NCBI GenBank assembly: GCA_039715055.1
Contig: JBDLID010000004.1
Span: 1 to 51,682 of the forward strand
Reading direction: 5' to 3'
Source: Thermodesulfobacteriota bacterium
GTDB taxonomy: Bacteria > Desulfobacterota > Desulfobulbia > Desulfobulbales > Desulfocapsaceae
Length of the DNA: 51,682 nt
Below, in pieces: positions 2,852-51,682 of the stretch. The position numbers were made by a program, and so were the translations under genes. Every line of letters starts with the position of its first letter. The stretch's first letter is position 1. Below the pieces are notes generated by a model, which ran no database searches, was not told where the DNA came from, and saw only the letters and a list, made by a program, of their open reading frames with translations.

Positions 2852-3083
2852 CCCATTCCGACCTGAACTGAACTATATAGTCTGGTAAAAATCTAAAAAG
2901 ATAAAAGTTACTCCGAAAAGAGCTGAACAGGCAAGTCTTTTTTCCTTTGATTTCAAGGAAAGAGACCTTTTTAATGAACCTAAACGAAAGGGGGAATGCT
3001 TACCGATGGCAAGTGGAAATGAATTCATTGAAATATTGGTCGGTTAATGGCAAACAGTCTGCTTCCGATTTTAATCAAATTAC

Positions 3084-6896: not shown

Positions 6897-7045
6897 TGAA
6901 AGGATAGACGTTTCCGCTCTTTACCGCACCCATTGTCCCTTCGCAATGGATTGAATCCGCGAACTTATTCAGTGTAAAGCCGGGTGTGTCCCTACGCAGG
7001 GAACAGTAACCCTTTGCCCTGTTTGTAAATACCAGCCACAAAAAA

Positions 7046-7081
7046 ATCCCCCGGAAGATTCAATCTCCCGGGGGATTTTCC
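7046..7081. terminator. Bidirectional rho-independent terminator hairpin (AATCCCCCGG...CCGGGGGATT) flanked by A/T runs. It lies between the convergent kinase and FadL-like genes.
   Basis: A 10-bp GC-rich inverted repeat with a ~13-nt loop. An A-run precedes it and a T-run follows it on the + strand. Confidence 0.6.
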
Positions 7082-11887: not shown

Positions 11888-14884
11888 TCACGTCGTCCTG
11901 ACAAGACTCACCCTGTTCACCACCAGGCTGACTGCGCCAAAATCACGATCTATCGTCCCGTGCAGTACATACGGTCTGCCTGAGGACAGGAGATGGGCGT
12001 AACGCTGATATGTCCTTGGGAAAAAGGTGGTCTCCACCAGCCCGGTCTCATCCTCAAAGGTCAGGAACTCCATCACCTCGCCATTTTTGGTTGAAACCAG
12101 TTTGCCGGTGATCAGCCAACCGACAAAGCGCACTTTTTGACTGGTGTGATCCTCGAGATCGATTGCCCTGACCCGCCCTGCCAGGATACTTTCAGGCATC
12201 AGAGAGACCGGGTGACAGGAGGTGAGAAAACCCAGTATTGCATATTCCCTTCGCAGTCGCTCCCTGGTTACACCGTCTTTTAACTCTGGAGGAGGAGGCG
12301 CTGAAAAACCAAGCAGGGGTGTTGTCCGCTCCGCCGCTCTAGCACTATTGAGACGTGCGCACTCCCACAGCAGTTGACTGCGGCTCAAAGGTCCTGCCAC
12401 ACAATCCAGGGCACCGCTGTGGATCAGGGCCCGCACCTCGTCAGTCGACGGAGAGGTACGGACAAAAAAATCAGCCGGATTGCGATAAGCACCCTCCAGC
12501 CTGCAACTGATGACTCGCTCAACCAGACCGCGGGAAAGACCTTTGAGCGCCATCAGGCCGACCCGGACCACACTACCCTCGCCGCTCCATTTTCTGGTAC
12601 TTTCATTGACGCATGGAGGCACTATGGTCAAGCCGAGCCGCCTGGTCTCAGAGACATAGGCAAATGTGGAGTAGAAGCCACCCTCATTTGAAATCACCGC
12701 CGCCATGAACTGGGCCGGAAAATGGCACTTGAGATAGGCGGCCTGAAAAGAGACCTTTGCATAGGATGCCGAATGTGGCTTGCAGAATGAATAGCCGTCA
12801 AAGGAGAGGATCATCCGCCACAGATCCTCTATTACGCTTTGCTCGATCCCGTTTTGACGACAGCCTGAAAAAAATTCCTGCCGATAATCGGGCAGCCGCA
12901 TCTCCCGATCCTTTTTCGATAACACCTTGCGCAACCCGTCCGCCCGGGCGTGGGAAAAAGAGGCAAGGCGGACCGCCACCCGTGAAACATCCTCCTGGTA
13001 GACCATCAATCCGTAGGTCTCGTCCAGAACATCTGTCAGTAGAGGATGGAGCTGGTCATACCTGCCGCCATGGAGACGCCTGACATACTCCCTGACAAAT
13101 TCGTTGGCAGCCGGCCTGATGATCGATGACTGGATGACAAGCTGCTCAAAGTCACCCACCGCCGCCTTTTTCTGGAGAAGCCGCATGGCCGGGCTCTCGA
13201 TATAAAAGCAGCCCATGGTCAGCCCGTTGGCCACCGTCACCCTGGTGGCCGGATCATCTTCCGGCTGCCAGTTTGTCTCGTCAAATTCAACCCCACAGCC
13301 ACGCACAGCTCCAAGTCCGTCCCGGATGACACCCAGGCTGCGGTTGCCGAGCAGGTCGATCTTCACCAGCCCCGCCTCCTCGGTGCCATCCTTTTCCCAG
13401 TGAATGATGGGAACGCCCTTGGCGGCCCGCTCCACCGGTACATAGTGGTTGATCGGCTGCGGCGTGATGACCACGCCGCCCGGATGGACGGAGAGGTAAC
13501 GCGGAACTCCGACCAGTTGCTCCGCCTGTTTAAAAATTGACGGCCACGGTGGCGACAGGTCGATGCCCCGCATGGTCGGCAGGTGGGCCACGCTTGCCGC
13601 CATACTTGTACCATGACCACGATACCATGGCAGCCGCTTGGTCACCGTTGATATCTCCAGGGATGACAACCCATGGGCCCGGGCGGTTTCACGGATGGCC
13701 ATTTTCGGCTGAAAGCAGACGTGGTTGGCGACCATGGCGATGTGACCATTGAAATCATGAAGGACCTCGGCCAGAACATGGTCACGCTCGTCCCAGGAAA
13801 AATCGATATCGATGTCCGGCGGATCACTGCGGCCCGGATTTAAAAAACGCTCAAAATAGAGATTGTGTTTTACCGGGCAGACGTTTGTGATTTCCAGGCA
13901 GTAGGCAACAAGAGAGGCCGCACCTGAGCCGCGGCCGCAGATCCGCCTTTTTTTTCGCACACCGTTTGTTCCCAGGCGGTGGACGATATCACGCACCACC
14001 AAAAAATAGGAGGCGAATGCCATTTTACAGATCACCTTCAACTCGTGCTCCAGGCGTTCCACCACCGGTTCGGCCAGATCCTCTCCGTAGCGGTTGACCG
14101 CCCCCTCATAGGCCTTGCGACGCAGGACGGTGCCACTCTCTCCACGACCGCGCCAGGGCGGCATGATAATCCCAAAATCCGGGCCGCGGAATCGACAACG
14201 CGCTGCAAGCAGTTCACTGTTTTTCAAAACTTCAGGCCAGATTGCAAAACGGTCCGCATAAACATCAGGGTGCTCCAGATACTTCGCAGTGCAGTTGCTG
14301 CTTCGGCTCCTGATTTGCGACAGGCTTTTTTTCTCATCAATGGCCCGCAGCAGTTGAAACAGCTGCTGCTCATCCGGACCACCAAGGACTGCGGCCGGTG
14401 TACAGAGCGATGCGATCCTCCTGGACCGTGCCCAACTGCGCAGTCTCGATGCCCTTGCGTCCGGCTGCGCCCCGAGGTCCGCCGAAACCGACAGACCAGC
14501 CCGCTGCAGCCCCGCAAGAACTGTTCTGTTATCGCTTAAAAACAGAAGTCCCTCACCGTGGTCAGCGCACTCCCGGACGAGTTCAAAATCCGTATCCAGA
14601 TGCTTCCCTGTTAACAGCTGACAGAGGTTTTTATAGCCCTTCTCATTTTCAACCAGAGCGGTGAGCCGATGCCCGCCGTCGTCATCTATGTCCGCACCGA
14701 TAACCGGTCGCAGCCCCTCTTTTTTGCAGGCCGCAAGAAATGACCAGAGTCCGTAGAGGTTGTTCAGGTCGGTCAGGGCCAAACCGCTGTAGCCAGCCTT
14801 TTTTGCCAGGCGGCACAGTTTTGCCGGAGAGGCGGTGCCCTGCATCAGTGAATAGTGGGAACGGAGCCGCAGGGGGAAAAACAT
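11888..14884 (-). CDS. dnaE2: Error-prone DNA polymerase DnaE2 (ImuC), a Pol III alpha-like protein with a PHP domain.
   Basis: The 998-aa ORF has a PHP N-terminus (RSHYSLMQGTASPAKLCRLAKKAGYSGLALTDLNNLYG). Its start is coupled to the imuB stop by a 4-bp overlap. Confidence 0.9.
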   Translation of the reverse strand: MFFPLRLRSHYSLMQGTASPAKLCRLAKKAGYSGLALTDLNNLYGLWSFLAACKKEGLRPVIGADIDDDGGHRLTALVENEKGYKNLCQLLTGKHLDTDFELVRECADHGEGLLFLSDNRTVLAGLQRAGLSVSADLGAQPDARASRLRSWARSRRIASLCTPAAVLGGPDEQQLFQLLRAIDEKKSLSQIRSRSSNCTAKYLEHPDVYADRFAIWPEVLKNSELLAARCRFRGPDFGIIMPPWRGRGESGTVLRRKAYEGAVNRYGEDLAEPVVERLEHELKVICKMAFASYFLVVRDIVHRLGTNGVRKKRRICGRGSGAASLVAYCLEITNVCPVKHNLYFERFLNPGRSDPPDIDIDFSWDERDHVLAEVLHDFNGHIAMVANHVCFQPKMAIRETARAHGLSSLEISTVTKRLPWYRGHGTSMAASVAHLPTMRGIDLSPPWPSIFKQAEQLVGVPRYLSVHPGGVVITPQPINHYVPVERAAKGVPIIHWEKDGTEEAGLVKIDLLGNRSLGVIRDGLGAVRGCGVEFDETNWQPEDDPATRVTVANGLTMGCFYIESPAMRLLQKKAAVGDFEQLVIQSSIIRPAANEFVREYVRRLHGGRYDQLHPLLTDVLDETYGLMVYQEDVSRVAVRLASFSHARADGLRKVLSKKDREMRLPDYRQEFFSGCRQNGIEQSVIEDLWRMILSFDGYSFCKPHSASYAKVSFQAAYLKCHFPAQFMAAVISNEGGFYSTFAYVSETRRLGLTIVPPCVNESTRKWSGEGSVVRVGLMALKGLSRGLVERVISCRLEGAYRNPADFFVRTSPSTDEVRALIHSGALDCVAGPLSRSQLLWECARLNSARAAERTTPLLGFSAPPPPELKDGVTRERLRREYAILGFLTSCHPVSLMPESILAGRVRAIDLEDHTSQKVRFVGWLITGKLVSTKNGEVMEFLTFEDETGLVETTFFPRTYQRYAHLLSSGRPYVLHGTIDRDFGAVSLVVNRVSLVRTT

Positions 14885-14886
14885 TT

Positions 14887-16074
14887 TCAGGCCGAACTGT
14901 CAGCACATTTTCCCGGACCAAACCACACAGCATCGTGACCAAAACGGCTGCGAACCCGGTCCATGGCAGCAAACAGCTTCTCCTCCCGGAGCTGCCTCGG
15001 GTTTTTTGTGCAGAAGAGGGAAAGCTGGGGAGAGACCTTTTGCAAACGGTCGGCGATGAGTCTGCAGCTGCGCAGACGGCTGCGCATACTCCAGGCCCGG
15101 AGCAAGGCGTCAAAGGCCATTTTTTCGATCTCAACATCCCTGCTGCTCCCCTGTCGACCTGAGCTTCCTCCTGTACTGCGACGACCATCACTGTGATGAA
15201 GTTCAACCATAACCCGTCGGCATTCAAGCTGCCTTGAACGCAACTTGCGACAGAGACGCCCGGCGAGGCCTCTCAAACAGATACGGACAAGCTCGTGATC
15301 TCCACAGTCGTCATCAAACAGGTGCTCAAAAAAGATCTTTGCAGCCGACTCATTTTCAGCATGCACCTGACAACTGTCTATGCCGCGGCTGACCTGATGG
15401 AGAAATTCTCCGCCCTTGCCGAAGATAACCATGAGCTGCTGGGGGCTCAGACTTGCCAGTTCACCGACCCGGCTCAGATTGAACTCCGCCATCCGCCCCT
15501 GCTGGTGACGGCTCACTCCGGGAAGAATGGTAAGCGGCAGAGGAGCCAGAAATGCACTCTCTTCCCCCGGACCGACAATATATTCGCCCAGCGGCTTAAC
15601 CAGACGGGAGGCCACTTTTGAAACCAGCTTGGAAGTCGCCACCGTCCAGATCGGCCGGATTCCCAGGCGGTTGCCAAGCTGTTTACGCAGCCGCCAGGCA
15701 ATATCCGGCGGGGGACCAAACAGACGATGGGTGCCGGTCACATCGACAAAAAGATGACCATCGAGCAGCCCCTGCTCGATCTTTGGAGAAAAACTGCTCA
15801 CCTCGGAGACGAGGCCCTGCATGGCACGCCGGTAAAGAAGAGGCTGCGGCGGCAGGACTGCTGCACGGCGGCAGAGCCGTCTTGCCCGGCTGAGGCGCAT
15901 TCCTTTACGAACGCCGTCCTGGTATGCCTCTTCACTCATGTCATAGACCGAGGCCCGGCCGCCGGCTCCGGCAGCGATAAGAAGGGGGCGACTGCGCAGC
16001 GAGGTGTCTTCAAGGCGCTCTACGGCAACAGCAAAGTCAGCCACATTCAAGTGGATAATGGCACGTTCCAGCAT
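14887..16074 (-). CDS. imuB: ImuB-type Y-family DNA polymerase homolog (UmuC/DinB-like, mutagenesis cassette). The start was set at the internal ATG (MLERAIIHLNVADFAVAVE).
   Basis: The Y-family N-terminus follows the IxHxDxDxFFAxVE pattern. The longer ORF running to 16251 passes through a structured inverted repeat and has no match to the family N-terminus, so it was rejected. Confidence 0.75.
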   Translation of the reverse strand: MLERAIIHLNVADFAVAVERLEDTSLRSRPLLIAAGAGGRASVYDMSEEAYQDGVRKGMRLSRARRLCRRAAVLPPQPLLYRRAMQGLVSEVSSFSPKIEQGLLDGHLFVDVTGTHRLFGPPPDIAWRLRKQLGNRLGIRPIWTVATSKLVSKVASRLVKPLGEYIVGPGEESAFLAPLPLTILPGVSRHQQGRMAEFNLSRVGELASLSPQQLMVIFGKGGEFLHQVSRGIDSCQVHAENESAAKIFFEHLFDDDCGDHELVRICLRGLAGRLCRKLRSRQLECRRVMVELHHSDGRRSTGGSSGRQGSSRDVEIEKMAFDALLRAWSMRSRLRSCRLIADRLQKVSPQLSLFCTKNPRQLREEKLFAAMDRVRSRFGHDAVWFGPGKCADSSA

Positions 16075-16176
16075 GGTAGAAGGGTAAATACAATTCAGAA
16101 TCTGATTACGTATAAAGTGTCGCCACCTCTTGCCATTGAATAACAAGCAGTTAAGGCTGACATTCTGGCCCGGAGT

Positions 16177-16273
16177 GATAGATGTTTGATTTGCGGGACG
16201 CCATAAACCCATCCATAGGGGCTTGATCGCAGCCGTCCGGGCTGTGATCAAGCCCCCAAATCAAACATCTATC
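16177..16273. repeat. Nested long inverted repeat. The outer arms are a 17-bp perfect match (GATAGATGTTTGATTTG / CAAATCAAACATCTATC). The inner arms are an 11-bp perfect match (GGGGCTTGATC / GATCAAGCCCC).
   Basis: Read directly from the sequence in the 290-bp gap between the DUF72 stop and the imuB start. Confidence 0.6.
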
Positions 16274-16366: not shown

Positions 16367-17230
16367 TCAACCGGCGGCGAGCAGCTGCCCGAACAGCCTG
16401 GCGTTTCTCGGTGCCTGGGCCCGGACATGATTGTTGAAAAATACCGCTCCGCTTGAGGCCCTGCTGCAGATAACCGACATATGGTCGCGCAACCAGCTCT
16501 TCAGCTCCTCTTCACTGTAGTCGTAGTCGAATTTCTGCTGCATATTGGCCGATCGCCAGCCCCTTTCATTGCGGCCATGAAAGCGGATATAAAAAAGGTC
16601 GGGATTGGTCACCACATCAAGCAGGGGAAAAAGACCGGGCAGTTGCGGAGCGTCAACGGTCACCAGGGTGACTCCTCGTTTCTCAAGCTCGGCAAAAACA
16701 GAATCCCGGGCCCAGGAACGATGACGAAATTCAACGGCCAGCGGCAGCCCGGCCAACCCGTCGAGCAGCCTGGCCAGATAGCTGCGCCTGGAGTGAGTCC
16801 AGTCAAAATCAGGAGGAAGCTGAATGAGGATGGCCAGTAAACGGTTCTTCAACGGAGCGATTCCCTGGCGATAAGAGCGCAGCTGTTCGGGCCACCCGGC
16901 ATCGACTTCATGGGTCAGGGTTCGGGTCAGCTTGGCGGCAAAACAGAAGTGGTCCGGAGCTCTGCTGACCATCCGCTCCACAGCCTCGGCCCTGACCATC
17001 TGGTACCAGGTATAGTTAAGCTCCACCACTGAAAATTTTTGACCATAGAGCGGCAGCATGTCAGGGGTTTTGGTCAGTGATGGATAAAAACCGCCGTCCA
17101 CCCACTCCGTATAGGAATAACCGCTGGTTCCGATCCGCACCCTGCTCTCCTGTGCAGAAGAGTGGTTTTGGACCATATGGACCTGCGGCAACGGATCCGT
17201 CTGCTGTTTCATAACCTCTTTGCTGCTCAC
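16367..17230 (-). CDS. DUF72 (YecE-like) family protein. It is translationally coupled to lexA through a GTGA overlap. An alternative internal ATG start is possible.
   Basis: The conserved DUF72 N-terminus is RIGTSGYSY, and the family-typical length is about 270 aa. Its start codon overlaps the lexA stop. Confidence 0.75.
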   Translation of the reverse strand: MSSKEVMKQQTDPLPQVHMVQNHSSAQESRVRIGTSGYSYTEWVDGGFYPSLTKTPDMLPLYGQKFSVVELNYTWYQMVRAEAVERMVSRAPDHFCFAAKLTRTLTHEVDAGWPEQLRSYRQGIAPLKNRLLAILIQLPPDFDWTHSRRSYLARLLDGLAGLPLAVEFRHRSWARDSVFAELEKRGVTLVTVDAPQLPGLFPLLDVVTNPDLFYIRFHGRNERGWRSANMQQKFDYDYSEEELKSWLRDHMSVICSRASSGAVFFNNHVRAQAPRNARLFGQLLAAG

Positions 17231-17841
17231 ATCTGTCCACGGATGACGCCGACCACCTTACCCTGGACCAGCAGCTCGCCGAACCCATAACGTTTTGCGT
17301 CGAACTCCTTGTTTTCAGGGCGAAGCTCAATACAGTCGTCATGGCGAAAAAACCGCTTCACAGTTGCCTCTTCACCGTGGAGAAGGGCCACTACAACCTC
17401 CCCGTTTTCCGCATACTGACGTGGTTCACACACCACAAAATCGCGGTCGAGAATCCCGGCGTCACGCATGGATTGTCCATCCACCCGGAGACAGAAAAGA
17501 TTGTCACCGGGAAACATTGCAGCGTCAACCCACACCGATCCATCCCACTCCTGCTGAGCATACATGGGCAGACCGGCGGTAATCTGCCCGATTACCGGCA
17601 GCTCACGACCGGCCCCACTTTTTTTCTCAGGTGGAGAACCGGACAGCAGGCGGATGGTGCGACTGTAATGACCGGCCCGCTCGAGATAGCCTTTTTTTTC
17701 AAGCTGACCAATAAACTGGGCCACCGCAGAATGGCTTATTCCCAGATCCAATGCGGCTTGACGCAGGCTTGGAGCCCGGCCCTGGTTGTCTAAACATTCT
17801 TTGAGGTAATCGAGAAAGGCGCTTTGTTTGGTGGTCAGCAT
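17227..17841 (-). CDS. lexA: LexA repressor: winged-helix N-terminus plus an S24 autopeptidase C-terminus.
   Basis: The 204-aa ORF has an HTH in the N-terminal region. The C-terminal S24 domain shows Ser/Lys dyad context (VDGQSMRDAGI...VVALLHGEEATVKRF). Confidence 0.9.
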   Translation of the reverse strand: MLTTKQSAFLDYLKECLDNQGRAPSLRQAALDLGISHSAVAQFIGQLEKKGYLERAGHYSRTIRLLSGSPPEKKSGAGRELPVIGQITAGLPMYAQQEWDGSVWVDAAMFPGDNLFCLRVDGQSMRDAGILDRDFVVCEPRQYAENGEVVVALLHGEEATVKRFFRHDDCIELRPENKEFDAKRYGFGELLVQGKVVGVIRGQM

Positions 17842-17847
17842 GAGAGA

Positions 17848-17992
17848 AGGGTGTAGGGTTCAGGGTATAAGGTTTAGGGTATAAGGTTTAGGGTATAAAA
17901 GCAGGGTGCAGGGTTTAAGGTATAGGGTTTAAGGTTTAAGGGCTAAGGGTATAAGACGGGGTGCAGGGTTGAAGGTACAGGGTTTAAGGATT
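17848..17992. repeat. Degenerate tandem array of ~7/14-bp G-tract repeats (GGTTTAGGGTATAA and variants) containing the telomere-like TTTAGGG. Thirteen GGG tracts occur on the + strand, which is the lexA template strand.
   Basis: Read directly from the sequence. Exact tandem 14-mers occur at 17871-17884 and 17885-17898. The array begins 7 bp upstream of the lexA ATG. Confidence 0.8.
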
Positions 17993-18004
17993 AAAAATCA
18001 CCAA

Positions 18005-22901: not shown

Positions 22902-23468
22902 TTATTTTCCCGGCAGCTCGTACTTGCCGAACTCCCAGTAACGGTGACCGGGTTGACGCGGACCACTCCATCCGGCGGACAGTAGATTGTGGCCGATCAT
23001 TTTATTGAGAATACCGTGTCCGACAAAAAGGAGCGGCCCTTCATCGGCTGCCGCCTCTGCCAGCCTGACAGCACAACTCCTGGCTCTTTGACGAGCATCA
23101 TCCAAAGATTCACAGTTTGGGCAATAGCCGAGAAACCAGAGAATCCGTGCTGTCACGACCCAGACACCAGGCGGTAAACGGGGTGATGGAAAGTTTAATC
23201 CGGGAAGCTCAGCCTCTCTGAAAAGCGGATCTCCATGAGTATCCCCAGAAAACCCCAGTGCCCCTGCAGACTCAATGGACCGTGGAAGGTCGCTGCATAT
23301 CACACTTCGGCACTGGTTTGCCATTTCCAGTGCCTGAACAGGTGGCTCATCTCCTGCTGCCAGGCCCGCCATATTGTACAAGCTGACCCAGTGGGAAATC
23401 GATCTGGCGTTCAGTCGGTCATTATGAGGGGGTTCCGGTCGGCCATGTCTCAATAAAATTATCTGCAT
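22902..23468 (-). CDS. Histidine phosphatase (phosphoglycerate mutase-like) family protein.
   Basis: The RHG motif occurs at the N-terminus (IILLRHGRP), and a C-terminal VGHG motif is present. Confidence 0.75.
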   Translation of the reverse strand: MQIILLRHGRPEPPHNDRLNARSISHWVSLYNMAGLAAGDEPPVQALEMANQCRSVICSDLPRSIESAGALGFSGDTHGDPLFREAELPGLNFPSPRLPPGVWVVTARILWFLGYCPNCESLDDARQRARSCAVRLAEAAADEGPLLFVGHGILNKMIGHNLLSAGWSGPRQPGHRYWEFGKYELPGK

Positions 23469-23541: not shown

Positions 23542-23673
23542 TTAGTGCCTTACTCCATGAAAACGCCAATAAAAAACAAGACGTAATGAAATAACTTTAA
23601 AATCAAAAAGTTAGCTCAACCACAAAAACACTTATCCAGCGACTCTAAAAAGTTTCACGACTTATCGGGTTAG
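23542..23673 (+). repeat. Copy A of a ~130-bp dispersed repeat (TTAGTGCCTTACTCCATGAAAAC...CACTTATCCAGCGACTCTAAAAAGTTT.ACGACTT.TCGGGT.AG). The second copy is at 50670..50800.
   Basis: By-eye alignment of the two copies gives about 80% identity, with conserved 5' (~35 nt) and 3' (~50 nt) blocks and a diverged middle. Both copies are on the + strand in intergenic DNA. Confidence 0.6.
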
Positions 23674-23711: not shown

Positions 23712-24611
23712 TTACGATGCAGGAGCCCGCACGGCCTTGAACAGATGTATCGTAACCAGCAGAAGTGACCCGACAATCATCCCCGTGAGAAGTTCAGCAG
23801 CCACGGCTGGCAGGATTTCAAGGGCATGGTGAACAGCATCAATATTGTGAACAAACATACCGCCGCCCACCAGCAGCATGGCAACGGTACCGATAATACC
23901 CAACAGCCGGATTACTCTCGGCAGGGATGCGGCGAGGAACTCACCGCCCGATTTCAAAACCCTTGCTCGAAGCCCCTCTTTGGTGGCAGAACGTCTTATA
24001 AGAAAATAGCCGGTGTCATCCATTCGGACAATGAGAGCTACAAACCCATAAACACCAACCGTTGCAATCAGTGCGATCATGCTGACGACAATAATCTGGA
24101 GCACCAGGCTCTGACCGACCACAGTCCCCAGGGCAATAACGATAATCTCAATGGAGAGGATAAAGTCGGTACGTACAGCCGCCTTGATCTTTTTCTTTTC
24201 ACGCTGCTCAAGCTCCTCCGGATTGCTCGATTCCTCAGAGCTGCCGTCGACCTCTTCCGTCTTCTCATGCCCCCCATGGCCAGTTAGCCACTCATACACT
24301 TTTTCGACTCCTTCAAAACTGAGATAGGCGCCACCGAGCAGCAATATGGGAACAATGAGCCACGGCATGTAAGCGCTGAGCAGAAGCGCGACTGGAAGGA
24401 TAATCAATTTATTGATAATTGACCCCTTGGTAATCGCCCAGATGACCGGTAATTCCCTTGAGGCCTGGAACCCGGTGGCCTTCTCCGCATTGACCGCCAG
24501 ATCATCACCCAGCAGACCGGCTGTTTTTTTGGCAGCAACCTTGCTCATAACCGCAGCGTCATCGAGCAGTGCTGCAATATCATCCAGAATCGCAAAAATT
24601 CCACTGGCCAT
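23712..24611 (-). CDS. DUF808 family inner-membrane protein (YedI-like).
   Basis: Conserved N-terminus (MASGIFAILDDIAALLDD) and a multi-TM profile, 299 aa. Confidence 0.8.
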   Translation of the reverse strand: MASGIFAILDDIAALLDDAAVMSKVAAKKTAGLLGDDLAVNAEKATGFQASRELPVIWAITKGSIINKLIILPVALLLSAYMPWLIVPILLLGGAYLSFEGVEKVYEWLTGHGGHEKTEEVDGSSEESSNPEELEQREKKKIKAAVRTDFILSIEIIVIALGTVVGQSLVLQIIVVSMIALIATVGVYGFVALIVRMDDTGYFLIRRSATKEGLRARVLKSGGEFLAASLPRVIRLLGIIGTVAMLLVGGGMFVHNIDAVHHALEILPAVAAELLTGMIVGSLLLVTIHLFKAVRAPAS

Positions 24612-50208: not shown

Positions 50209-50673
50209 ATGAAACTTGTAACAACATCCAAAGTAATTGGTGCGGCAATTCTCTTCTCCATGGCAGCCTGGCCTGTTCAGGGAATCTCCTCACAGAACCC
50301 GGTTGATCTCGATTCACTCCGGCAGCAGACTCTCAATAACACCTTGCAGGCAGATCTGGAATCACCTGTTAATACAGACTGGATTGTAGTCGCCGGCAGA
50401 GGCGGCGGGAACGGTGGTGGAGGCAATGGCAATGGTGGTGGTGGTAACGGCGGCGGTGCGGGAGCCGGAAACGGCAATGGCAACGGTGACGGTTCAGGGG
50501 ACGCGCCAGGGGACGGAACCGGTAACGGTCCCGGCGACGGATCAGGAGACGGCCCACAGGATGGCACCGGTTTTGGCGCGGGCAATGGCCCGGGTAACGG
50601 TGTTCATGAACCGGGAACAGGCGGCGGCCCTGGAAATGGCATCCACGTCCCGGGAACCGGGCTGACTGATTAG
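50209..50673 (+). CDS. Secreted low-complexity Gly/Asn/Asp-rich repeat protein.
   Basis: A signal peptide (MKLVTTSKVIGAAILFSMAAWPVQG) and a ~60-aa N-terminal region are followed by GNG/GDG/GPG repeats (GGGNGGGGNGNGGGGNGGGAGAGNGNGNGDGSGD...). Codon periodicity is consistent with the + strand. Confidence 0.55.
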   Translation: MKLVTTSKVIGAAILFSMAAWPVQGISSQNPVDLDSLRQQTLNNTLQADLESPVNTDWIVVAGRGGGNGGGGNGNGGGGNGGGAGAGNGNGNGDGSGDAPGDGTGNGPGDGSGDGPQDGTGFGAGNGPGNGVHEPGTGGGPGNGIHVPGTGLTD

Positions 50674-50800
50674 TGCCTTACTCCATGAAAACACCAATAA
50701 AAAAAAGAAGTGATGAGGTAGCTTTAAAATCACAAACTTAGAGTGATCACCAAACCACTTATCCAGCGACTCTAAAAAGTTTTACGACTTGTCGGGTCAG
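50670..50800 (+). repeat. Copy B of the ~130-bp dispersed repeat (see 23542..23673). It starts at the stop codon of the Gly-rich gene.
   Basis: By-eye alignment to copy A gives about 80% identity, in the same orientation. Confidence 0.6.
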
Positions 50801-50854: not shown

Positions 50855-51682
50855 TCAAAGAGTCTCAAAAACCTTGCGCCTGGCCTCGGCCGATCGTTTC
50901 AGGGCCGATACCGAATCATCAACATAGTCAAAAACCCTGGCCTCCTTACCCTTTGCCGGACGCATAATCCGGCCGATTATCTGCAGCAGTCGCCCCTCAA
51001 AGGTGATGGGGGTGGTGAGAAAAAGACAGGTCAACCCCGGGCAGTCAAAGCCCTCGCCAATCAGCTGCAGGGTGGCGACGAGTACGCTGATCCTTCCCTC
51101 ACGCACATCGTCTACAACCTGGCTCCTCTTTTCCGCCGGAGTCTGACCGGTGAGCATGGCCACTTTAACACCCCTGTTCAACAGCAGCCGTTCAAAGAGC
51201 TCACAGTGAGTCACCCGATCTGAAACAACAAGCGATACCCCACCTTCCTTTTCACCGGCAACCGCAGCCACGTCGCCTACGATCTGGACATTACGTCCCT
51301 CGTCTTTTGTCAGGGCGGTGATGAGCGCCTGATAATCTCCCCTGTAACGGTAGCTGAACGCGGTCATTTTTCTGAAAAATTTCGGTTTGACAATTGCCCC
51401 GCTTTCAGCAAGTTCCAGCTTGTCCACCTGATGAATGCGGTCTCCCATGAAATAATAAATAAGACGGGTGGTCTGGTCATCGCTGCGAAAGGCGGTGGCG
51501 GAAAGGCCGAGCATGTAATAACAGTCGAAACGGCTCACCACATCGGTAAACAGACTTGCCGGAACACGGTGACACTCATCCACTACCAGGTGACCGAAGT
51601 GATCTTTCAACTCGTCCACCCGTTTCCTGGCACTGTTGACAATGGCCACGGTCACCGGCTCGATTGTAAAATGGCCATCTCC
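50855..51682 (-). CDS. Superfamily-2 DEAD/DEAH-box helicase (type III restriction res-subunit-like / RadD-like), C-terminal part. The gene continues beyond the window end.
   Basis: Motif II is DExH (VVDECHR), motif III is SAT (GLSATAF), and helicase C-terminal motifs include QIIGRIMR. The reading frame is open to the window edge. Confidence 0.75.
   Translation of the reverse strand, partial: GDGHFTIEPVTVAIVNSARKRVDELKDHFGHLVVDECHRVPASLFTDVVSRFDCYYMLGLSATAFRSDDQTTRLIYYFMGDRIHQVDKLELAESGAIVKPKFFRKMTAFSYRYRGDYQALITALTKDEGRNVQIVGDVAAVAGEKEGGVSLVVSDRVTHCELFERLLLNRGVKVAMLTGQTPAEKRSQVVDDVREGRISVLVATLQLIGEGFDCPGLTCLFLTTPITFEGRLLQIIGRIMRPAKGKEARVFDYVDDSVSALKRSAEARRKVFETL

Follow-up and report, generated by a model that had tools for sequence, protein, structure and literature searches.

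A previously undescribed family of MITE-like, probably non-autonomous mobile repeats in some marine Desulfobulbaceae-like bacteria

What are the two repeats of ~131 nt each that lie in direct orientation, 27.1 kb apart, on one contig of a Thermodesulfobacteriota bacterium (order Desulfobulbales, family Desulfocapsaceae)? The contig, JBDLID010000004.1 of assembly GCA_039715055.1, was analysed over its positions 1 to 51,682, a stretch that we call the window, and the repeats occupy 23542-23673 (copy A) and 50670-50800 (copy B). An initial annotation, made from the letters alone, had left the choice between a multicopy small RNA (sRNA) and a novel repeat element. We find support for the repeat element and none, in the RNA tests made, for the sRNA or another structured non-coding RNA (ncRNA). 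The window repeats are very likely insertions of a short, non-coding, non-autonomous transposable element. This reading is favoured because copies are dispersed over several genomes, because their ends are sharp and because sites that carry the element (filled) can be compared with sites that do not (empty), with TTA on both sides of the insertion. The repeats form a previously undescribed family of non-autonomous mobile repeats resembling miniature inverted-repeat transposable elements (MITEs). Taken as a whole, we consider this explanation likely.

Two window copies and their relatives in other genomes

The similarity between the two copies ends abruptly. blastn aligns copy A with copy B at 85.6% identity over 132 nt (E = 7e-36), and nhmmer reports copy A at E = 3.7e-32 and copy B at E = 8.1e-35, while a profile search of the window gives no third copy with E < 1. 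In a MAFFT alignment of A and B, identity is at background level right outside both boundaries and the flanks are unrelated. The two conserved blocks quoted in the initial annotation, of 23 nt and 27 nt, are each found exactly twice in the window, also when 3 mismatches are tolerated, and in none of 100 shuffles. Thus blastn, alignment and block counts all bear out the positions, direct orientation and spacing of about 27 kb that were initially annotated. The conserved ends and diverged centre are equally real: the copies match at 76 of 80 end positions and at 37 of 52 central ones (Fisher p = 2e-4). Copy A was correctly described as starting and ending with TTAG; copy B, however, starts with TTAG and ends with TCAG.

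The family extends well beyond these two copies. Exact-word scans, a profile search and neighbour-gene look-ups brought together about 20 insertions, independent of one another and 115-180 bp long, whose ends are sharp and whose flanks are unrelated. They come from at least nine assemblies counting the window's (at least eight others), and the hosts are marine Desulfobulbaceae-like bacteria. A 20-nt word from the 3' block is found in three metagenome-assembled genomes, namely a 'Deltaproteobacteria' bin (3 copies), a Desulfobulbaceae bin and a bin labelled Myxococcota; a degenerate 3' pattern is found in four contigs from two metagenomes and in none of the viral contigs scanned. The copies retrieved by these word and pattern scans all begin and end sharply, with TTAGTGCCTTACTCC at the 5' end and ...CCAGCGACTCTAAAAAGTTTTCCGACTTGTCGGGTTAG at the 3' end, and a profile built from them brought to light more copies, partial or variant, in the same loci. 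When a consensus copy was compared by BLAST with plasmids and phages, there were chance-level matches only. In the literature we found no described MITE in Desulfobulbaceae and no relevant TTAG-specific IS605/TnpB element.

Copies stand in both orientations relative to neighbouring genes, and reading them on both strands reveals no conserved open reading frame (ORF). Truncated, internally deleted, tandem and mosaic copies are all present. In one locus of 19.9 kb (L032; GCA_964195205.1, CAXMQL010000001.1) six copies lie between 6686 and 17061, about one per 3 kb, including a head-to-tail pair with one shared TTAG. In another (L007, 3620-4112) the left junction falls at about codon 121 of a thiD-like ORF (PF08543), and the frame remains open across the whole element; only this left junction is documented, the contig stretch stopping within the element with the right junction outside. 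A search for an uninterrupted thiD relative gave best matches that were just 57-64% identical. A second, separate sequence of 52 nt is shared between two loci of the same metagenome (L006 6334-6385 and L007 3541-3592, 88% identical); its L007 copy stands just upstream of thiD and it has no Rfam match at the gathering threshold.

Filled and empty sites, and the mobile unit

What does an insertion add, and where? Contigs of relatives were collected through protein-cluster look-ups (neighbour proteins at least ~87% identical), which yielded four filled/empty comparisons, three of them clean. At site (a), upstream of a CDP-alcohol phosphatidyltransferase gene, the element is present in three loci (L004, L015, L016) and absent from five contigs (L027-L031). 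The flanks are ~97% identical and the filled sites have exactly 128 bp extra: the empty site reads ...GTCACCA-TTAA-ATATAC and the filled one ...GTCACCA-TTAG-TGCC...GTCGGG-TTAA-ATATAC. Site (b) lies upstream of a cytochrome-b5/FMN-dehydrogenase gene and holds a variant copy in L005 (...TTAG-TGCC...CCGGTG-TTAG-TTCTTTTAC) and none in L014 (TTAA-TTAG-TTATTTTAC). The spacer between tusA and a dsrE-like gene, site (c), measures 52 nt when empty (L026) and 178 nt when filled (L003); where the empty site has a single TTAG, the L003 copy, which is old and decayed, has CTAG and TTAA at its two junctions. Site (d) is the stop codon of a gamma-glutamyltranspeptidase (GGT) gene, which is empty in L008 (GGCCTTTAG followed directly by CCCGC) and holds two head-to-tail copies in L021, L022 and L032. 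A fifth comparison, of a full copy in L008 with L021, is not clean, 47 extra bases accompanying the element.

Empty sites thus show exactly one intact target without footprint. They contain one TTA and filled sites two, a doubling that is also compatible with an element carrying one TTA itself. Since the target at site (a) is TTAA but its left junction reads TTAG, the G must be the element's first base and the shared junction bases must be TTA. At the junctions examined, the right-hand TTA is followed by G in ten cases and by A in two, and the left-hand TTA is preceded by A or T in 12 of 13. The mobile unit is ~125 bp long, starts with GTGCCTTACTCC and ends with a small GC-rich hairpin and a G. 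Its integration site is a TTA triplet, in most cases within W-TTA-G, and TTA afterwards stands on both sides; the G of the left 'TTAG' is the element's own, and the fourth base of the right 'TTAR' is the target's.

Within this unit, conservation is uneven, with a mean pairwise identity across copies of 88% at positions 1-15, 62% in the centre and 96% in the 34-nt tail. The body starts with GTGCCTT(ACTCC), and the reverse complement AAGGCAC recurs at about positions 85-91, followed by TTA-T, so that the first ~91 nt look like a canonical MITE: TTA, inverted repeat, TTA. The two repeat arms covary, being GTGCC/GGCAC in nine copies and GTACC/GGTAC in four, with one hybrid. Every copy then runs on into a tail, in which a GC-rich hairpin of 4-5 bp is followed by G and by the outer TTA. 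Three unrelated tail types exist, all ending in hairpin-G-TTA (Table 1). In the inner arm of both window copies the two central G are missing (AAACAC and AACCAC, as against AAGGCAC), and the copies have lineage-specific 5' variants in common; this decay and these shared variants suggest that they are probably old and immobile. In other words, copies A and B are probably inert passengers of long standing.

Some copies contain, in addition, a 27-nt palindromic module (CAGTACCCCCTTGAGGGGTG, CTCAGTTCAGTACCCCCTTGAGGGGTG) that was found only inside element copies, in both orientations (L005 3121-3147, 3829-3855 and 3741-3761; L008 ~2839-2865; L009 1646-1672). It stands at element position ~28 in one orientation and at ~94 in the other, and most copies, A and B among them, are without it. 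In one subfamily a shortened form of the module makes up the entire 3' tail. It may be a unit of its own, similar to the repetitive extragenic palindromic (REP) sequences. Between the orthologous copies L008 2806-2893 and L021 1940-2094 a segment of ~42 nt, consisting of the hairpin module and its flanks, is inverted, and the L008 copy has lost everything past position ~61. A mini-copy of 55 nt (L005 5445-5497, minus strand) joins the 5' end (TGCCTTACTCCTGAAAAG) to the T-rich tail, 10 nt after the stop of a gene for 507 amino acids; its left junction is without TTAG and it has no clean empty site. About half of the copies match, by eye, an WATCARNNNNTTR motif like that of integration host factor (IHF), a match that could easily arise by chance in A/T-rich sequence.

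The target includes a TAG or TAA, so an insertion may fall precisely on a stop codon and restore it: the element can hit a T-TAG stop or, inserted the other way round, C-TAA. In fact, a junction coincides with a stop at copy B, at tusA in L003 and at three L032 genes. At copy B the stop TAG of ORF 50209-50673 is composed of the junction TA and the element's first G, and the reconstructed sequence before insertion (...ACTGA-TTA-GCAAC...) has the identical stop codon. All three L032 genes that end in T-TAG, the GGT, 2-hydroxyacid dehydrogenase and URO-D genes, carry a copy on the stop. Enrichment at stop codons beyond the target itself is not significant (three of six L032 insertions lie at stops, against five of 28 candidate sites in stop context), and the TTAG target alone accounts for the placement.

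Mechanism and competing explanations

Which enzyme would move such a unit? The element codes for nothing, so mobilisation would have to come in trans, from a transposase gene at another place in the genome. DDE enzymes of the IS5 / PIF-Harbinger kind produce duplications of 3-4 bp at TNA/YTAR sites. An enzyme of this kind is our candidate, and it would bind the covarying repeat GTGCCTT...AAGGCAC. We make this guess because that group is characterised by 3-bp duplications at TTA(R) and because the covarying repeat fits a transposase-binding site; the assignment is tentative, plausible rather than probable. Comparable targets have been described for the insertion sequence (IS) IS5, which duplicates YTAR (PMC10359306), for elements of the IS1031 group, with a 3-nt target (PMC2516522), and for Harbinger elements, relatives of the IS5 family, with 3-bp duplications (PMC12730594).

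Several observations weigh against this explanation or parts of it. The 40 window ORFs contain no transposase or integrase domain, the gene calls of two 20-kb loci (L032 and L033) contain no transposase gene, and no full-length parent element is known. For neither window copy did we find an empty site; the closest relatives of the DUF808 gene beside copy A are 72-75% identical and not syntenic with this locus. The outermost termini (GTGCCTTAC... on the left; ...GTCGGG, ...CCGGTG or ...GGGGTG on the right) do not form inverted repeats, which is awkward for a DDE enzyme, and the inner arm lies 16-60 nt inside the right end, where no copy ends. The covariation of the arms may be a single event inherited by one subfamily. 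The 3' hairpins are weak as DNA, at -2.6 to -3 kcal/mol (about -2.6 to -2.9 for the tail of copy A) and z of 0 to -1.5, with no clear gain over shuffles, which is awkward for an enzyme of the IS200/IS605 type. Finally, the 34-nt tail, 96% uniform, exceeds the conservation that transposase-binding ends require, so that a function at the level of the host is conceivable.

Part of this evidence would suit other forms of mobility or use. An HUH / Y1 enzyme (of the type of IS200/IS605 TnpA or of the REP-associated RAYT) could have moved the same element in single-stranded form; it would cut after the left-flank TTA and after the element's own terminal TTA, without true target duplication, guided by the 3' subterminal hairpin and the long inverted-repeat hairpin. 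Such a route would explain the asymmetric outer ends without inverted repeats, the identical short sequence at left flank and right terminus, the GC-rich hairpin kept directly before G-TTA in three unrelated tails and the single intact target, without footprint, of empty sites; one copy per ~3 kb together with mosaic, invertible hairpin modules also recalls arrays of REP and bacterial interspersed mosaic elements (BIMEs). But the hairpins are short and, with the energies given above, no better than shuffles; those at left and right are unrelated, while both ends of IS200/IS605 bind the same TnpA; a guide tetranucleotide would find no space between TTA and the left stem; the window ORFs and the gene calls of fetched loci show no Y1 or TnpB gene; and the Rfam IS605-associated RNA motifs have no match. 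We regard this route as the main alternative: the asymmetric ends, the recurring hairpin-G-TTA and the density suit it about as well, but we rate it somewhat below the DDE enzyme. It is unlikely, in our view, that the element has an undescribed kind of end, with a right boundary set by any small GC-rich hairpin plus G-TTA, a covarying recognition repeat at the left end and an internal site, REP-like density and preferential landing on T-TAG stops; any of the three unrelated tails would then work. The enzyme behind such ends would be of HUH type or otherwise a structure-reading or two-component system outside the catalogued bacterial IS families, again an unlikely case. Improbable, too, is a domesticated cis-acting module, spread by transposition and then kept for the host, in its tail or as a whole 3' untranslated region (UTR) unit, as a protein-binding site or a stabiliser of mRNA 3' ends, roles proposed for REP and for enterobacterial repetitive intergenic consensus (ERIC) sequences. 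This would agree with a tail whose mean identity across genomes is 96%, compared with 62% for the centre, with the L003 copy, whose 5' half is badly decayed while its tail is 92-98% conserved, with the many copies that stand in sense orientation directly after stop codons, and with an orthologous insertion kept across strains whose neighbouring protein is 93% identical. Yet other subfamilies swap the tail for unrelated sequence and still insert cleanly, copies after gene ends are antisense about as often as sense, the TTAG target accounts for the stop-codon placement (the three-of-six excess not being significant), and the substitutions between orthologous copies are evenly spread, tail included.

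The two remaining explanations would not require mobility at all. A family of multicopy sRNA genes or other structured ncRNAs, which we consider very improbable, would fit the conserved ends and variable centre, a C-to-T change on the plus strand that preserves a G-T/G-U pair in two places, and a long-range helix of 8 bp that is possible in the better-preserved copies, the L004 copy folding at z -1.2. However, that helix is broken in both window copies, which fold at z +0.15 to +0.28 against dinucleotide shuffles on both strands. The Rfam scan proposed in the initial annotation returned nothing relevant at gathering or permissive thresholds: with Rfam 15, apart from a tRNA, neither the window nor nine further loci (L001-L009) have a match at gathering thresholds, and at E <= 10 the matches are at chance level only. 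Nor did the covariation test proposed there reveal any RNA-specific covariation among copies. RNAalifold on ten copies yields 10 weak pairs at -5.6 kcal/mol without a compensatory pair; in helices proposed by eye for 12 copies no pair is changed on both sides and covariation is below the shuffle mean; and the lone compensatory position, which appears on adding the GTACC subfamily, fits a DNA repeat equally well. Consensus scans show no promoter-like or terminator-like site inside A or B, and since the sequence upstream of the copies is conserved in no case, the element does not bring a promoter with it. Moreover, copies stand in either orientation relative to genes, one of them within a coding region, and filled/empty polymorphism with target duplication is a property of DNA insertions. 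The other explanation, that gene ends were duplicated segmentally or that the copies are att-like direct repeats on either side of a 27-kb island, has practically no probability. Direct orientation at 27.1 kb would fit it, but the flanks are unrelated right up to the element boundaries, which excludes the duplication of flanking gene ends considered initially; the interval holds housekeeping genes (dapF, bipA) and no integrase or transposase; A and B are just 86% identical; and the element occurs in many unrelated contexts of other genomes.

A few narrower roles were tried and rejected. A Rho-independent terminator or outward promoter would have appeared in the consensus scans, which were empty inside the copies; for a small peptide gene there is no ORF conserved between copies; the R'/R'' core motifs of an integron attC site do not fit on reading the sequence; and a bridge-RNA or omega-RNA scaffold is contradicted by the lack of a stable fold (z ~0).

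Gene surroundings and comparison with known systems

The Pfam-annotated neighbours confirm that copy A lies between a DUF808 gene and a histidine-phosphatase-family gene (Table 1), as initially stated; the promoter-like site near the latter (23487-23458) is outside copy A. If the window copies are transcribed at all, this most likely happens as part of neighbouring transcripts, copy A being most likely antisense in the DUF808-to-phosphatase spacer and copy B in the 3' UTR of the glycine-rich ORF.

Table 1. Parts of the two window copies, tail types of the family and neighbouring genes
Feature	Position	Strand	Remarks
Copy A, 5' junction TTA	23542..23544	+	Target-derived triplet, recurs at 23670-23672; from the sequence and from filled/empty pairs elsewhere
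Copy A, element body, 125 nt, GTGCCTTACTCC to CTTATCGGG	23545..23669	+	Aligned to copy B and 17 other copies
Copy A, 5' terminal inverted-repeat arm GTGCCTTACTCC	23545..23556	+	Complementary to inner arm AAGGCAC in most copies
Copy A, degenerate inner inverted-repeat arm CCACAAAAACAC, then TTAT	23620..23635	+	Most other copies: CCACCAAGGCAC, then TTAT
Copy A, 34-nt 3' tail CCAGCGACTCTAAAAAGTTTCACGACTTATCGGG, with small hairpin CGAC..(G/A)TCG	23636..23669	+	Most conserved block of the family
Copy A, 3' junction TTA	23670..23672	+	G at 23673 is the target's fourth base
Copy B, 5' junction TTA	50670..50672	+	From the sequence
Copy B, element body, 124 nt	50673..50796	+	First base G (50673) completes stop TAG (50671-50673)
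Copy B, 3' junction TCA, mutated form of TTA	50797..50799	+	From the sequence
Tail type 1, ...CCGACTTGTCGG-G			34 nt, window copies
Tail type 2, ...ACCGTTTACCGGT-G			T-rich
Tail type 3, ACCCCCTTGTGGGGT-G			Bare 16-nt hairpin; 115-nt subfamily dominating L032
Histidine-phosphatase-family gene	22902..23468	-	Pfam PF00300, E = 2.2e-7; start 74 nt from copy A 5' end
DUF808 gene	23712..24611	-	Pfam PF05661, E = 8.6e-96; stop 39 nt from copy A 3' end
Glycine-rich ORF	50209..50673	+	Stop overlaps copy B 5' junction; no Pfam family
Helicase gene (ResIII / Helicase_C)	50855..51682	-	3' end 55 nt from copy B; runs off contig end

Some features of the surroundings deserve mention in their own right. The product of the glycine-rich ORF has a signal-peptide-like N-terminus and a long low-complexity body rich in Gly, Asn, Asp and Pro. 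The closest named homologues of the DUF808 protein, beyond itself, are ~70-75% identical and mostly labelled Gammaproteobacteria (Sedimenticola, Sulfurivermis), with few labelled Thermodesulfobacteriota; the gene may have been acquired horizontally. Elsewhere in the window, a tandem array of G/T-rich units of ~14 nt (TAGGGTTYAGGGTATAAGGTT...; 17826-17997) stands directly upstream of a lexA-like gene (17227-17841, minus strand). This gene heads a run that continues with a DUF72 gene (16367-17230), an imuB-like gene (14887-16251) and a dnaE2-like gene (11888-14884), and the run looks like an SOS mutagenesis cassette. Self-BLAST also finds self-complementary (palindromic) stretches at 7043-7079 of the window (37 nt), in L006 at 2982-3048 (67 nt) and in L007 at 1407-1552 (~149 nt).

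For annotation, both window loci should be labelled as repeat or mobile-element insertions and not as candidate sRNA genes. The family is a lineage-restricted repeat that reaches up to one copy per few kb in uncultured marine Desulfobulbaceae. As one contig stretch ends inside a copy, it may fragment metagenome assemblies, and its presence/absence polymorphism provides strain-level markers for host populations. Since the target contains a stop codon, flush insertion at gene ends is possible without damage. The covarying repeat and the boundary beyond the right arm offer a handle for finding the responsible transposase, and the unusual right end is a testable puzzle of how a boundary is defined.

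How does the element compare with known systems? It resembles multicopy regulatory sRNA families in having several similar non-coding copies per genome with conserved blocks; unlike them, it has no travelling promoter or terminator, no conserved fold and no Rfam family, and it shows insertion polymorphism. With the ERIC sequences, or intergenic repeat units (IRU), of enterobacteria (~127 bp) it has in common its size, its confinement to non-coding, probably transcribed regions, its occurrence in either orientation, its strong conservation across species and the longer variants that arise through insertions at fixed internal sites. ERIC, however, is one long imperfect palindrome, which the element is not; the sequences are unrelated and the host lineage is different.

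The palindrome-associated transposable elements (PATEs) derived from IS200/IS605 and the REP/BIME/REPIN group share with the element asymmetric ends, a short sequence common to left flank and right terminus, and a subterminal hairpin. Like PATEs, the element has no terminal inverted repeats and a fixed insertion context, W-TTA-R, at the junctions examined; like REP/BIME, it is very dense between and just after genes and mosaic, with a palindromic module in either orientation. In contrast to these groups, its hairpins are short, weak and dissimilar between the ends, it lacks a GTAG-type REP signature, and no Y1, RAYT or TnpB genes were seen nearby; the TTA duplication is equally consistent with a staggered double-strand cut.

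This leaves the MITEs of the IS5-family / PIF-Harbinger (Tourist-like) type. The element departs from them in extending 16-60 nt past its right arm to hairpin-G-TTA, so that it has no inverted repeats at its outermost termini, and in that no parent IS or transposase was found in the window ORFs or the L032/L033 gene calls. In other respects it follows them: at 115-180 bp it is non-coding, high in copy number, mostly intergenic and found in either orientation; its short and specific target, TTA(R), is seen to the left and right of the insertion, and TTA borders either side of the inverted repeat GTGCCTT/AAGGCAC; and, as in MITEs, conserved ends enclose a variable middle, with internal-deletion and tandem derivatives.

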